DNA from: Adineta vaga
Taxonomy: Eukaryota; Animalia; Rotifera
Direction of reading: 5' to 3'
Length of the DNA: 64,000 nucleotides
Assembly (NCBI GenBank): GCA_021613535.1
Contig: CP075494.1
Span: forward strand, 6,758,001 to 6,822,000
Notes under the pieces: model-generated
The model's database searches: none
What the model was told of the DNA's origin: nothing
Seen by the model: the letters and a program-made list of their open reading frames with translations, nothing else
Position numbers and translations under genes: made by a program
Shown here: positions 56,896-64,000 of the stretch, in pieces
Numbering within the stretch: position 1 is the stretch's first letter
Layout: each line of letters begins with the position of its first letter

Positions 56896-59800
56896 ATGCG
56901 TTTCATACGGTTACTTCTTACTTTAATACTTTGGATTCACAATGAGCTCATCTGTTTAACATCACATGCTACAACAACAACGACCGAAATCATGACTGAT
57001 TTGGAAGACGGTCATCCGAATCATCAACTTTGGAAAAAAATGATTGATCCAGGACGTTCTTTATCATCCGATCGGTATGTTAAGGTTTTGATCTCATTTT
57101 TAGAGATTCTCATTAGCCTAAGGCATTCCAGCTTAGTTAAACTAATTGGAATAAAGTAAAAGAACACGGAGAAGCAAGTCTTACAAGAACGATAATTTCA
57201 TGGTGAAATGTACTAGAAACTTGTGACAAGTAACACATTCGAAAATCGAATGAAAGAATAATAGCAACACTTTTCTATTCTTATTTTAATATCATCAATC
57301 TTATTAATATCGAAACCTAACACGAGATCGACTTCTCTCTATCTAATTATATGGCAGACATACTGCATAGTATGACTTCGATTGCTTGCCAGAATAAGCT
57401 GAAGTGTTAGCTAGGATGTCAAACTAAAGTAATAATAATAATAATAATCGAAGAAAGTGAGAAAAAACCTTCCTTTGATAGGATTGTTGGCTGACGCATG
57501 CTATACATGCAATCAGGATATTCAACACCGTTGAACACACATACGCTATCTAGTCGTTTTCTTTTAAACTAATCCTTAATAAGAGAGTAAAAGATATTTG
57601 AACATGAAATCTAATAGCGTCAATCCATCCTTCCTCATTAGACAAACTAGCAATTAGATTTAACCAGTGAGCTTTATTCATTTAGTACACATGCAATTGT
57701 AACTGAATCACTATCATCATCATCATCATCATTATTTCTACTTTTTCTTCTTTTTTACAAGGAGAAAAAAAGTATCTAGCCACAAGACTTACAGCTCATT
57801 GCAATCATATTAGAATTTTGTTCAATGTGTGCATAAGAGCGTTATTAGTCTACACTGATCCCTTCTTCCTGTTCCCGTTTGTCTTTCTTTCACTGATGAT
57901 CTATCAACAAAAGAGACTTTTTTGTTTAAATCTTCTCATACTGTTTCTATTCATAATGCAATGAAATACATAAGATATTCGAAAATATCCTTGACATCAA
58001 TCTATTTCATCCTTTTAATATTGAATCAATTATAATTCTTCAACATGTCTATATACATATTCTTATGCTAATCAAAGTACTAAAAAAAATAAGAAAGAAA
58101 GGAAGAGAAATCTATATGAAATATGAAGTGCCAAGAGGGTATAAACAAAAAGCTTCAACATCCGGTTGATGATTACACGAGCATCGACAATAAATATAAA
58201 TTGGATTATTGAACAAAGTCTGAATATGTAATAGAAATTGCAGAGAATTTTATTCAGTTTTCAAAATGATTCTGTTTAATTAACTGTATTACGATCATTA
58301 TCAACAGTAACATGGAATTTTATAGAAACAAACATGATAGTAGAAATCGAAAATTGTGAAACTCATTATCTTTTTTTTTTCTAATCATCGTGAAAGCATA
58401 GGCGTATAAAATAGATTTGCCTTGAGGGAGTAGGAAAATCATATAGAAGATGTTGTTTATGAATCTCTCAATCTCTTCCATAGGCGATTATTACATTCAT
58501 TTATGTTCTCTCTCGTCGACGTCATCATTTTCCCATTTATTAAAGAGCCCAAACGTTGAGTCGAAAGTTTTCTGTTTTCTCTCTAGTTCATTTTTCTTGT
58601 TTAAACATAAGAAAAAATGAAGCAAGAGAAAATGCTGATCTCAATCTCTGTTAAGACGACAAAGAAAATGAACATTGTATGTAAGCGTCGAGAATGACGT
58701 GTTCGTTTATTATCGTTTCTTGCTTGTTTGTTAAACATTGAAGAATATGTGGATAGAAATTGATTTTGAGCTTGATACTCAAATATAATACTAAGAAGAA
58801 AGTTACAAAAGAGAAAGAAAACGAGAGAAAAACGATCTAAGAAGAAAGAAAAACTAAGGAAGAGAGCAAAAACAATGCTCTGGTCGACACGCACGTCTAA
58901 AAATCCTTTTTTTTTTGTATTAAGGATGTGATACTAAAAGAAAGAAACATGCTACGGTGACTGAGAATAGAGAAATGAAAGGGAGAGAGGGGGGGAGAGA
59001 AGAAGAAGGAGACAGAGGAAAGGAGGGTGGAAAGAGAGAAATATAGAAGAAATAATGTTGTTAGCTGTAGTGCTGCAACAGTAATGAATAGTTGTAGAAT
59101 GTCTTAACATAAGCTTGTGAGTGGCAATGTTAATCAGCAACAAGAATGATTCTTCGCAATATTCTATTTCTACTTGTCTTGATCACTTATCTATTATATG
59201 GTCCCGTAGACTGTCAAGAGTTATGGGCAAGCAAGAATAATGATGAAACAATGGAAAGGTGGGTTTAATGTTTTTTTATTTTTTATAATTTTTTCAACAA
59301 TAGTACTATGTGAAATTAATGTTAATGATAAGCTCGAGAGAATAGTACATAAAACGGAAATTTTGAGAAAGTCAAAAAGAAAAATTGTTTCAAGGAAAAA
59401 ATTATGTTTTAATGGATTCCGAGTGTATGTCAGAGTAACATTGGAAAAGCAGTTAATTAACCACTTTCCGAACGCTTTCAAATTTATCAATATGTATCTG
59501 ATGGGCGTTTTTTTCCGTCGAGATTGTATGTATATAGACGATTCATCGCTCGTGATCAAGAGAAAGTAACCCGATCCACATATAAAACAACACCTTGCCG
59601 GAGGGCTTTTCCTTACTATTGTCTATTTTTGCTTTATACTGTTTTTTTGTATATCAATATAATTAAGAAATAGTATGAAAGCAAAATGATTTGCCGAAAA
59701 GAAAAGATTAAATAACTTTATAGTTTTTGTCTACAGAGATAAAAACATTGATCATCTATTGATAAGTGGAACTATTAAACAGCAATGAAGAAGAAGAAGA

Positions 59801-62800
59801 AGAAAAAGCATTGTGGACACAGATAGAGTTAATATTAGTTGTTTGCATGAACATACTTCATAAATAATAAAAGAATTTATCGAAAGATTGACAAAGATGT
59901 GGGTGGTATTGAGATTTATTACTCTGATAGTTTTTATCAATGAGCAGATTAGTTAGTGTCAGGAGACAAAGCTGCTCATAGTCAACTTCCTCATGACTAT
60001 GTCAATTTTATTTGAAAAACGCCTGTTTAATTTTCTATAAAGTATTCTTTTTCTTCTGTCATGTCTACATTTAATTAACAAGACACTAGTCAATATTCGA
60101 TTAAAAAAGAACTTGGTTCGATAGGAAATGTATAAGTATGCGAAGCACCGAATGATGCCTGTTCATTGACCTTGAGTTGAATCGGAAATGTAGTGTATAA
60201 GATAGATTGATTGAGTAGAACAGAAATGTTTTATTCAAAGGAACTAGTAAGACATTTCTTTACATGTCAAATCGAGAGTTAATTTGTTGTTCAATTACTT
60301 TTTTTTTAATATTTCATCAAAAAAAGAGAACCCTAGACAAATCTTCTACTATTAGCATCCTCGTTCGACGACAAGTGTAAGACATCGTTTCTTCGTCGGC
60401 TGCTCCTTCTTTTCCGCTTCTCTCTCTCTCTCCTTTTTATTTCACCACTTGTCGGTTGTATGTGCCCATCATTACTCTTGGCACCAGCTTGCTTGGCGAT
60501 GCCCTAGTCATCGTCTTTTTTCTCGAAGATTCCATATTGATGTATCAGACAAGCAGTGAAAAAAAGCCTTAATGTTTCTCTGATAGAAATATGCATTTAT
60601 ATAAAACAAAACGTCAGAAACATCTAGAAAAATAGATTAAATTTCATATCCATACGTTTGTCAAACATTTATTTATACTTCTTCTATCGAAATGTCATCG
60701 GTATTAGCATTAACATATCAACAACATCAGTGACGAACCCAAAGGAGGGATTATGGGGATCGATCCCCCCCTCGCCAAGATTATATTACCTGGAGGAGAG
60801 TGGGGGGGGGGGGGTACAGGCTACTTTTTTGCGAGCGGAAAAAATCTCGTTTTCTCCATGACGGTCCTCCCTCCAAAAAAATTTCTGGTTGCGACACTGA
60901 ACAACATTGGACATCATCTATGTGTCAGACAAGACGACGTTTCTGTTGTTCTTTCATTATTGGTTAAGCATCGATACATTTGCCAGTTATTTACTTTATT
61001 TCTTCCCTTGATTGGGTTTATACATTGTTATTGTGATGTATATAGAATATTCCTTTACATACATAAGGACTTTTCGTACATGATACATATGTTTTCCTTT
61101 GGTTCTTGAGTTTCTCCTGTGCATACATATATATATATATAGGTACGTTTATATATACGTGATTGTATCTATACCTTGGTTCTCTCTTTCTCGTTCTCTA
61201 TCTTCATCTATTTCGGTTCATTCCTTATAAAGAACTCTCCATATATTTACTAAAATATATTCGTTCATTCTACGGAATCTGACGACGTGACAGTTATCAA
61301 AAAAAGATCCAACAGCAACTGTCTATCCTTTATTCTGAATTAAATCATGCATTTCTATATTAATGTGCACTGTTTAATAACACTTTTCACGCTTGTTTCT
61401 AGTACAAATTATTTACGGCATGATGCAACTATAAATACTGTCGAAGAATTTCTTGATACATTGATCAATTCAAGTCGATATGATAGACGTATTCGACCAT
61501 TCTTTGATCAACATAGTAAGTCGTTTTTTCCTTATTATGATCACAATTATTTATCTTTATCACTTATAGAAGCATGTAATGTGACAATGACGATTCATAT
61601 TAATACAATTTCAGCGATTAATGAAGTTAATATGGTAAGGTTGACATAATGACATTTGGATGTCAATGATTTTCTCGGTGAATTATTTCTAGGACTATAA
61701 TACAGATTTAATTTTTCGCCAATCATGGTATGATCCAAGGTTAAATTATACGGGAACAGATTGGGCAACAAAATCACCACAAATTACATTGCATTATTCA
61801 CTTATTGATCGTATTTGGGTACCAGATTCGTTCTTTAGGAATGCAAAAGAAGGTAAACGGAGTGATATAACCGTACCCAATCGATTAATTCGTATTCATC
61901 GTGATGGAAAAGTCCTCTACAGTCAAAGGTTTGTTCATATGTTTTGAATTTCTGTCTTAGATCCATTATTTTATAATTGTAGACTTTTACTTAAACTTGA
62001 TTGTCAAATGAAATTACAAAAATTCCCACTGGATAACCAAACATGTGTAGTTAATATTGGCAGTTGTATGTATCTGATATCGATGATATATATATAACCA
62101 CGAAAACATTCTTTGTTTATTTCCAGATGGTTTCGCTACAAATGATTTGGCATTCTTTTGGGATGAAGCTCAAAATGTCAGTGCTATCCGAGTTAATGAA
62201 GATCTTGAAATGCCTGATTTTGTCTTAAGTAATCACGAAGCAAGATACTGTAATCGAACAACAGCAACAGGTTTGATTCTATTTCATTGTTTGTAAATTC
62301 GATTTACAAAGAAAAAAACTTTCTTCATTTGAGTACACTTTTAATTATATGCTGCAATCTTATATACATATATATGTATTTTCTTTTGTAATAAGTTTTC
62401 TTTTCTCCTCGACTGACTCGTAGGAAAATTTGCTTGTATCGAAGTACATCTCGCTTTACAACGCAACATCAATTTATATTTACAACAGCTTTATTTACCA
62501 TCAACATTAATTGTTGCTCTATCATTTATCGCATTTTGGATCGACTATAAATCTCATCCTGCACGAACATTATTGAGTCTACTCAGCATTGTTACTGTAA
62601 CAACAAAGGCTGAAGGTACAAGAAAAACTTCTCTTTCTTATTGTTTTTTTATCTCTCTCTCTCTCTCATTCTCTTTACTCTAACCTTTATCTTGAGTAAA
62701 AAAAGCTCATACACACACGCGCGCGCGCATATTCTGCTTGCACTATCCGTTTGTTTGTTTGTTCGTTGGTTGATTGATTTTTTTTTCTTTTGAGAATCAC

Positions 62801-63867
62801 CACACGAAAGTTCCATGCACTTTTTAAAAAAATTTGACTAATATTTCATATGAGTTAGCAGCAAAGTATACACAAATGAAGAAAGTTTTTCAATTATATT
62901 CGTTTATTTATTTAAACGATCGATATTCTAGGCAGTTTTACATGCCTTCTTGTTGTTCTTCATTTGAAACGTTTATTTGGTTATTATCTTGGTGAGTTTA
63001 GTAAATATGAATTATTTTCTTTTTTTAATATTATATGAGAATGCATCTGAGAAAGTTAAATTTCTATAGTTCAAGTTTATATTCCATCAATGCTTATTGT
63101 GATTCTTTCTTTTGTTTCATTTTGGATCGATCATAAGTCGGTAAGGTCGCCACTAAAGTCGAATAGCACACTTGTATTTCTAATCACTATATTCAGGTTC
63201 CAGCTAGAATATCAGTCGGTCTTTTAACTGTACTTACAGTTACTACTCAAAGCTCAGGTAACTAAATTAATCATTAAAAAAAACCATACAAGTGAATACT
63301 CATCATAATAATAAATCATTTCCATCCATATACACTTATTCACACCATGCTCACTGCTTCCTTTCTTCTTCTGTTCATCGAATGCTTTATTGCTTATTTT
63401 CATAGGGTCTTAGTCAGGAAGACATTTTTCAACTTTTTTTTATAAATATTAAAACATCTTTCTGGCTAACGACCTTGCTTAATGCTTTCACCCTTATCCA
63501 AAACTAAAATGAATATCAATTCGATTCGATTCTAATAGAAGTTTTTTAATCGTTATTTAGGTATACGATCACAATTGCCGCGTGTATCATATATAAAAGC
63601 CATTGATGTTTGGATGTCAGCATGTCTTGTTTTTGTTTTTGCTGGTCTACTTGAATATGCACTTGTTAATGTTATTGCTCGAAAAGGCGAATTAAGACAA
63701 CAAGTTCGTTTTTCAAAAGAAGTAAGTTTAAATATATTTGTATTTTGTTATATTATTGTTATCTCTTTAATGAAGTCTCGTTATATGAATGATAATCTAT
63801 TAATATATATTCATCTGTCTATTTCGACAATATATTGTAGAAAAAAAATCCAGACAGACCACCCAAA
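56896..63867 (+). CDS. Cys-loop ligand-gated chloride channel subunit (GluCl/glycine-receptor-like), 3' end off window
   Basis: Signal-peptide exon 56896-57074 splices in phase 2 to 61403. [17 protein letters not shown], Cys-loop [15 protein letters not shown], loop C [13 protein letters not shown], PAR before M2, [14 protein letters not shown]...EYALVN. Confidence 0.95.
60728..60899. mobile_element. Non-autonomous hAT-type MITE in channel intron 1
   Basis: 172-bp GC-rich island. Imperfect TIRs CAGTGACGAACCCA / TGGTTGCGACACTG. Perfect 8-bp target-site duplication AACAACAT at 60720-60727 and 60900-60907. Confidence 0.88.
62424..62615 (+). other. Channel M1-M2 module A (single 192-nt exon, phase 1-1)
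   Basis: (G)[63 protein letters not shown](G), flanked by TAG and GT. Confidence 0.88.
62932..63257 (+). other. Channel M1-M2 module B (three exons 62932-62991, 63070-63140, 63197-63257; 192 nt in total, phase 1-1)
   Basis: (G)[63 protein letters not shown](G). Confidence 0.92.
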
Positions 63868-64000
63868 GTAACTCTGATACAAAAACTACAGAATGGCTCA
63901 TCTTTTGCTGCTGAGAGAGTAAATCAATTATATTTTTATTTTCATACGTAGTAGTTAATAGAATCTTTTCCCTAAAGCTTCTTCTTATATTTTTCTCACA

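Follow-up and report, generated by a model that had tools for sequence, protein, structure and literature searches.

Organization of the locus

The 64,000-nucleotide (nt) stretch of the Adineta vaga genome considered here (assembly GCA_021613535.1, contig CP075494.1, positions 6,758,001 to 6,822,000), referred to below as the window, contains a gene for a Cys-loop anion channel, with a Cys-loop extracellular domain, transmembrane (TM) helices (M1 to M4) and a PAR motif before M2. Between the exon that ends in loop C (exon C) and the exon that encodes M3, the segment comprising the end of loop C, strand beta10, M1 and M2 is encoded twice, once by a single exon (module A) and once by three exons (module B, exons B1 to B3), each copy being 192 nt long. 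The reading that we favor, at a probability of roughly 0.7, is that this bdelloid gene splices either A or B between a shared extracellular domain and a shared M3-M4 region, that the choice is likely set by a central intronic element (the docker), and that the two resulting subunits have pores that are predicted to differ. The exons of this region are as follows.

61403-61515, 61570-61634, 61693-61928 and 61983-62065, plus strand: four shared extracellular-domain exons, defined by RNA-contig joints, with the loop G Asn, loop D Arg, loop A Arg and loop E Ser
62127-62270, plus strand: shared exon C, from the loop B Tyr to loop C, with the first loop C Cys; ends in phase 1 at AG/GT
62424-62615, plus strand: module A, one exon of 192 nt, encoding the loop C aromatic, beta10, M1 and M2; identified by the C-A and A-M3 joints and by conservation
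62932-62991, plus strand: module B exon 1 (60 nt), identified by the C-B1 and B1-B2 joints; 62956-62966 is a predicted alternative docker partner
63070-63140, plus strand: module B exon 2 (71 nt, M1), identified by RNA-contig joints
63197-63257, plus strand: module B exon 3 (61 nt), canonical M2 with 2′ Ser and 9′ Leu; identified by RNA-contig joints
63561-63721, plus strand: shared exon for the M2-M3 loop and M3, identified by RNA-contig joints

All coordinates, phases and exon lengths of the original prediction, which was made from the letters of the window alone, hold (exon C ending at 62270, 192 nt for A, 60+71+61 nt for B, and the M3 exon starting at 63561). Its description of two open modules that align without gaps, bounded by GT..AG introns and retaining the second loop C Cys and the PAR motif, was confirmed on the window sequence. 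Both modules start and finish in phase 1, and every intron is GT..AG. Over the gapless alignment the two copies encode the same residue at 33 of the 63 whole codons and agree at 109 of 192 nt. Neither copy has lost the PAR motif or the second loop C Cys, and A also retains the pre-M1 Arg and the M1 Pro; a beta10 Glu like that of the glycine receptor (GlyR) is kept in A and lost in B. The pore residues named in the prediction are correctly numbered when set against zebrafish GlyR: B has 2′ Ser and 9′ Leu, A has 2′ Leu, 9′ Val, 14′ Lys and 16′ Glu, and both have 6′ Leu. Positions 2′, 6′ and 9′ have roles in gating, desensitisation and block by picrotoxin and fipronil. Because the loop C aromatic and strand beta10 are encoded within the swapped segment, the binding domain is not wholly shared between the isoforms, a correction to the original prediction, whose interpretation is otherwise supported.

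A metagenome scan returned nine loci out of 234 candidate stretches, one of which (L001) duplicates another (L008). The same order of A, B1 to B3 and M3 occurs on four distinct single metagenome contigs (L002, L006, L008 and L009, with A partial in L009), and contigs of the DNA run X1 tile window positions 62195-63760; a second gene copy, also with A and B parts, is present at equal depth. The duplicated pore segment is therefore neither a chance resemblance nor an assembly join. A scan of prokaryote genomes for the locus returned none among 81 candidates.

Splicing of the two modules

Eight of the 24 listed sequencing runs (X1, X10 to X14, X16 and X19) were compared as assembled contigs. Seven of them are RNA-like and derive from five studies: X10, X11, X12, X13 and X14 are from A. 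vaga (three studies), and X16 and X19 are metatranscriptomes. The C-A joint was found in six of the seven (in X19 with variant letters), as was the A-M3 joint, and the C-B1 joint in five. All seven contain the B2-B3 joint, and all seven contain B1-B2, which carries four other letters in four of them, most likely because these contigs represent that second copy of the gene; B1-B2 with the letters of the window was seen in X12, X16 and X19. The true B3-M3 joint occurs in X16 only, and M3-like loose ends are present in the remaining six. The four junctions that the original prediction had put forward (62270 to 62424, 62615 to 63561, 62270 to 62932 and 63257 to 63561) are thus all represented in RNA-like contigs. 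Neither the A-B1 joint, expected of double inclusion, nor the C-M3 joint, expected of double skipping, was found in any of the seven, in contigs from which rare forms could escape. None of these splice joints is present in the DNA run X1. In L003, the spliced cDNA of another species, C and A are joined and the next intron is retained. Contig depth in X12, a rough measure, is 50.9 for C-A, 36.3 for A-M3 and 86.3 for B1-B2. One further joint in X16, from 63136 to 63559 (GT..TT, side 27), was set aside as a probable misalignment from another organism.

A and B are tandem homologous alternatives, each of which is spliced in, and it is highly probable that the two pore modules are used in a mutually exclusive manner. 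A number of public rotifer gene models (P0001-P0014, P0031 and P0044-P0047) string the two modules together, combine pieces of both, or skip them altogether, and none of the joints that they imply is present in the RNA contigs examined. Rotifer database proteins that have both modules in tandem are therefore, in many cases, likely mis-joined. In the annotation of Adineta steineri, one contig carries separate products with A only and with B only.

Conservation and selection of module A

Conservation and dN/dS (the ratio of nonsynonymous to synonymous change) of module A had been proposed as checks on the original prediction. A search made with exon A by itself gave 32 matches among 88 candidates, 77-100% identical, and all named matches are from Adineta, Rotaria or Didymodactylos; the module is thus present in three bdelloid genera. 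Its dN/dS is 0.15 over eight loci, with 0.05 for B over five; on the same four loci the values are 0.11 for A and 0.05 for B. With a dN/dS of 0.11-0.15, module A is under purifying selection. Over those four loci dS is lower in the modules (0.20 for A, 0.21 for B) than in exon C (0.50) or the M3 exon (0.34), and silent sites are therefore constrained in both modules.

The unusual pore residues of A are largely fixed. Leu at 2′ is present in 32/32 A modules and in 0/80 non-bdelloid M2 segments, and Val at 9′ in 31/32, where 78/80 of the non-bdelloid M2 segments have Leu. Neither 14′ Lys (26/32) nor 16′ Glu (25/32) is universal. The M2 of B is identical in 25/25 matched bdelloid copies and the same as that of the Brachionus orthologue model P0050. 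In a 62-column tree of modules, the A, B and monogonont modules group weakly (83/89), and the stem of A measures 1.15 changes per column, that of B 0.14. Module B retains the old pore, and A diverged fast and then froze. No A-like module was found outside bdelloids in the protein searches made, which did not cover monogonont DNA, and absence there is not shown. Among the matches listed in a search of 50% representatives (150 of 2357), A-type modules occur only as near-identical copies.

Gene identity and binding site

The family assignment is based on precomputed Pfam hits and PDB searches, in which the best solved relatives of the gene product are glycine receptors (E 1e-95), with the Caenorhabditis elegans glutamate-gated chloride channel (GluCl) 3RHW at E 7e-85; the A-type isoform matches solved receptors at E 8e-93. 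The gene model P0034 (Adineta vaga I4U23_024058) agrees with the window exons, an intron read-through included, and is annotated with B only. P0032 represents the second A. vaga gene copy, for which the annotation gives A only.

The binding site has a loop A Arg and a loop G Asn, at positions that lie 65 residues apart in an avr-14-type reference, together with the loop D Arg, loop E Ser, loop B Tyr, and loop C Thr and Phe. A GluCl signature of lophotrochozoan type (loop A Arg, no loop G Arg, AAA motif) is thus present. According to PMC4338433, a loop A Arg without a loop G Arg is the lophotrochozoan way of binding glutamate, and since the binding-site residues fit the signature described there, the channel is likely gated by glutamate. 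In a tree of 38 extracellular domains, built without characterised sequences, the gene falls within a rotifer-acanthocephalan clade (98/95) and the deeper forks are unsupported. Orthology with avr-14 was considered and rejected on the loop G Asn, an M3 Ser, an M3 that is shared and not duplicated, and the separate clade in the tree. The M3 Ser (window 63600-63620) stands where ecdysozoan GluCls have Gly. Ser at this position presumably predicts low ivermectin sensitivity of both isoforms.

Complementary elements in the introns

The introns around the modules contain pairing elements that went unmentioned in the original prediction. These introns are 121-316 nt long, against about 45-85 nt for most other introns of the gene, and they contain words common to all loci; three constitutive control introns share words of no more than 5 nt. 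Four elements were delimited.

62314-62355, plus strand: upstream selector in the C-A intron; 62314-62331 complements the docker core exactly over 18 nt, and 62350-62355 adds a 6-bp helix
62850-62891, plus strand: central docker in the A-B1 intron, with a 17-nt core common to all loci; in the window the docker core is at 62873-62890
63361-63404, plus strand: downstream selector, within the B3-M3 intron; its core is a perfect 16 bp in L008, and in the window it is weak
63406-63474, plus strand: conserved hairpin in the B3-M3 intron, with UGCU repeats on its flanks and one G-C to A-U change in L008

On the plus strand of the 64-kb window, the exact complement of the docker core occurs at 62314 only. 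Predicted pairing of the docker with the C-A intron has energies of -34 to -41 kcal/mol, with 0/100 dinucleotide shuffles as good in 7/7 loci, and RNAalifold recovers the stem between docker and upstream selector unprompted; the C donor and B1 acceptor lie about 43 and 40 nt from this stem. In the B3-M3 intron the best site for the docker is homologous in 5/5 loci, which have an 8-nt core in common, and the pairing beats shuffles in four of the five (at most 2/100 as good). Exon B1 is a second docker partner, strongest in the window and in L009. In folds of the unspliced pre-mRNA at 25 °C the partner of the docker core is upstream in 4/4 loci (p = 1.0). When the C-A intron is removed from the folds, at the same temperature, the docker pairs with the B3-M3 intron in L008, L002 and L006 (p >= 0.98) and with B1 in the window (p 0.81) and L009 (p 0.71).

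Three other conserved features lie near these elements. Within the A-B1 intron, positions 62708-62744 contain a GC-repeat and, after it, a short word rich in pyrimidines, partly common to all six full introns, for which no clear pairing partner was found. At the B1 donor an extension of 11 nt (62992-63002) is invariant in 5/5 loci. A conserved word in the B3-M3 intron (63347-63356) is predicted to pair with this donor extension, a pairing that is broken in L008.

A proposed splicing switch

Exclusion probably operates through the central docker, in a folding model where two events race. Should the docker and the upstream selector pair first, A would be looped out, the 661-nt C-B1 intron would be reduced to about 85 unpaired nt, and B would be used. 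Should C and A be spliced first, the upstream selector would be lost with the lariat and the docker freed. The freed docker could then pair with the B3-M3 intron, looping out the three B exons, or with B1, forming a stem over the acceptor, and A would join M3. Stem formation ahead of C-A splicing would thus yield B, and the reverse order A. The frame would survive inclusion of both modules, the intron between A and B1 measures 316 nt, and all sites are GT-AG; for these reasons nonsense-mediated decay, steric clash and incompatibility with U12 sites would not account for the exclusion. Under a fuller version, which we hold tentatively and at slightly less than even odds, the docker would act as a kinetic toggle that decides between one exon and a three-exon block and is reset when the upstream intron is spliced out. 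Under the same version the second pore, which is conserved and has a combined 2′ Leu / 9′ Val lining absent from the sampled relatives, would allow a single gene to supply heteromeric glutamate-gated chloride channels that can be tuned.

Several observations weigh against docker-set splicing of two isoforms from a glutamate-gated channel gene. In the models, the conserved complementary elements that would compete for one site are strong upstream and weaker downstream: docker pairing with the B3-M3 intron in L009 is not above shuffles (24/100 as good), and L002 and L007 have lost the partner in B1. Covariation in the upstream stem is also not above shuffles (score 234 of 500), with 15/21 core pairs invariant and one pair changed on both sides. 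Masking of the B1 acceptor was not supported, predicted acceptor pairing being 0.67 and 0.66 in the two states (window). The docker was chosen by eye ahead of its testing. As to splicing, five of the runs are classed as RNA by guess or only because splice joints are present and long introns are empty, and the RNA evidence consists of assembled contigs, from which rare forms are dropped and whose depth is a rough guide. The tree of 38 extracellular domains gives no supported union of the gene with the flatworm loop A Arg clade.

Predicted consequences and alternative explanations

B is likely to keep the ancestral pore and form ordinary channels. A, whose 2′ Leu is bulky and whose 9′ Val is smaller, most probably assembles together with B and would alter gating, desensitisation, conductance and sensitivity to pore blockers, by analogy with the action of UNC-49C on UNC-49B in the C. 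elegans GABA receptor. The chances that A is a heteromeric modulator are about even, and the labels alpha-like for B and beta-like for A describe putative roles. Somewhat unlikely is the alternative that splicing proceeds as proposed and A is no such modulator, instead making up a homomeric channel by itself, in different cells, or a non-conducting dampener. This alternative would be consistent with the retention of PAR, the pre-M1 Arg and the M1 Pro and with the substantial contig depth of the A joints (in X12, roughly 50.9 for C-A and 36.3 for A-M3), and AVR-14A, described as giving no homomeric current, offers a precedent for a silent partner (PMC8841521). Five 2′ Leu side chains, however, would be expected to crowd the inner pore, and UNC-49C, the closest functional precedent, is described as working in heteromers only (PMC8841521).

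It is unlikely that exclusion is set mainly by RNA-binding proteins, such as a Muscleblind-type factor acting on UGCU clusters, together with splice-site strength, with the upstream stem merely favoring the skipping of A and the downstream pairing incidental. Muscleblind binds YGCY, and the B3-M3 intron carries 5-8 UGCU per 246-303 nt in 5/5 loci, against 0.35 per 100 nt window-wide; the variability of the downstream docker partner among loci and the lack of a covariation signal in the upstream stem are also in keeping with control by proteins. Incidental pairing would not be expected to leave the 8-nt downstream core in 5/5 loci as the docker's best site in each, and the two loci with the weakest intronic partner, although they may be close kin, have the strongest B1 partner (-13.1 kcal/mol).

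Far less probable is a subunit that includes A and B together and so has two M1-M2 hairpins, as in many automated gene models. P0001-P0013 do place the modules in tandem, the frame would be maintained, and the topology is possible, but the A-B1 joint is missing from all seven RNA-like runs while joints bypassing A or B occur, and in A. steineri the A-only and B-only products share a contig. That A is a duplicate in decay, or that the assembly fused two paralogues, might have been suspected from A's long branch (1.15 against 0.14 changes per column for B) and its lack of B's introns, and is refuted by the same layout in independent contigs and in both A. vaga gene copies, by splicing on both sides of A and by its dN/dS of 0.11-0.15.

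Comparison with known systems

The pairing of one binding domain with alternative pores is not new to the family: it is preceded by avr-14 (PMC3144221) and unc-49 (PMC8841521), in which whole C-termini are exchanged. With exon 8 of the nicotinic acetylcholine receptor (nAChR) alpha6 subunit as a further case, the principle is already established. Nematode avr-14 (gbr-2, GluCl-alpha3A/B) is, like the window gene, a GluCl gene with one N-terminal binding domain and alternative channel parts; AVR-14A and AVR-14B are described as having a common N-terminal domain and a divergent channel part (PMC3144221). In P0052 and P0054, two gene models of avr-14, the alternative part begins anew ahead of the second loop C Cys, which is also where the modules of the window gene begin. 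The two differ in that avr-14 swaps the whole C-terminus (M1-M4), whereas the window gene swaps only an internal beta10-M1-M2 segment and shares M3-M4. The two M2 segments in P0052 and P0054 are nearly alike, whereas those of the window gene differ at 2′, 9′ and 16′, and avr-14 has the loop G Arg where the window gene has the loop A Arg, the two lying in separate clades of the extracellular-domain tree.

C. elegans unc-49 (the UNC-49A/B/C GABA receptor) likewise combines a common N-terminus with tandem alternative copies: one N-terminus is spliced to three C-termini, one isoform is homomeric, and UNC-49C modulates UNC-49B, with the picrotoxin IC50 rising from 0.9 to 166 uM (PMC8841521). The C. 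brenneri unc-49 model P0136 has three repeats, each starting from loop C, as in the window gene. The unc-49 receptor is GABA-gated and made from alternative terminal arrays, in contrast to an internal cassette. Exons 8a, 8b and 8c of insect nAChR alpha6 are internal alternative exons that alter M2 residues (PMC2064938); alpha6 is, however, a cation channel in which exon is exchanged for exon, whereas in the window gene one exon alternates with a three-exon block and the swapped segment also covers the end of loop C and M1. Among lophotrochozoan GluCls, SmGluCl-2 and the Aplysia GluCls have the loop A Arg, no loop G Arg, the aromatic box, the loop D Arg and the loop E Ser, as does the window gene (PMC4338433). 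No pore swap in these channels was found in the literature searches made.

Competing RNA pairings have also been described. In human ATE1 an element named R3 is said to be located between the alternative exons. R1 and R4 compete for R3 and thereby enforce exclusion, in a manner like that of the docker model (PMC7797038). ATE1 acts by hiding 3′ splice sites, whereas the docker would loop out one exon or three. Drosophila srp has two pairings, one upstream and one downstream, and either of them loops out a single exon (PMC4691838 and PMC6071210); srp uses two separate element pairs, and the window gene would use a single central element, a candidate only.

New in relation to these precedents are an internal beta10-M1-M2 cassette in an anion channel, the alternation of one exon with three, a pore with 2′ Leu and 9′ Val, and a candidate RNA switch. 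No description of a rotifer or bdelloid gene with alternative pore modules was found in the open literature searched, most subscription journals lying outside it, and the literature found on mutually exclusive GluCl exons near TM2 names only GLRA2, GluClalpha and avr-14. Together with avr-14, unc-49 and nAChR alpha6, the window gene indicates that Cys-loop genes have duplicated pore exons repeatedly, three times from the same loop C junction. The two isoforms form a natural chimera pair, identical in M3-M4 and in the extracellular domain up to loop C and differing in their beta10-M1-M2 modules, and so permit a clean test of positions 2′, 9′, 14′ and 16′ in gating and block. The compact 1.3-kb region is also a minigene-sized setting for the study of exclusion between one exon and a three-exon block.

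The Cys-loop models P0139 (ENA), P0144 (Hyalella azteca) and P0161 (Logan), all unverified, contain two close, diverged copies of the pre-M1-M1(-M2) segment. These are possibly independent tandem duplications of pore exons, and tandem M1-M2 duplication may be a theme that recurs in other animals.

Other transcript features

The transcripts also vary outside the pore modules. At least two RNA-supported alternative upstream exons (window 57045-57075 and 59050-59258) lead to the 61403 acceptor, the evidence being a joint from 59258 and loose ends matching 57045-57074. An in-frame ATG at 61347 (61347-61402) predicts a third, hydrophobic N-terminus that resembles those of P0024 and P0012. In the M3-M4 loop a cassette exon (window 63842-63919) is included in X11, X13 and X14, through a joint from 63721 to 63841, and loose ends at 63723 in X10 and X12 represent the skipped form.

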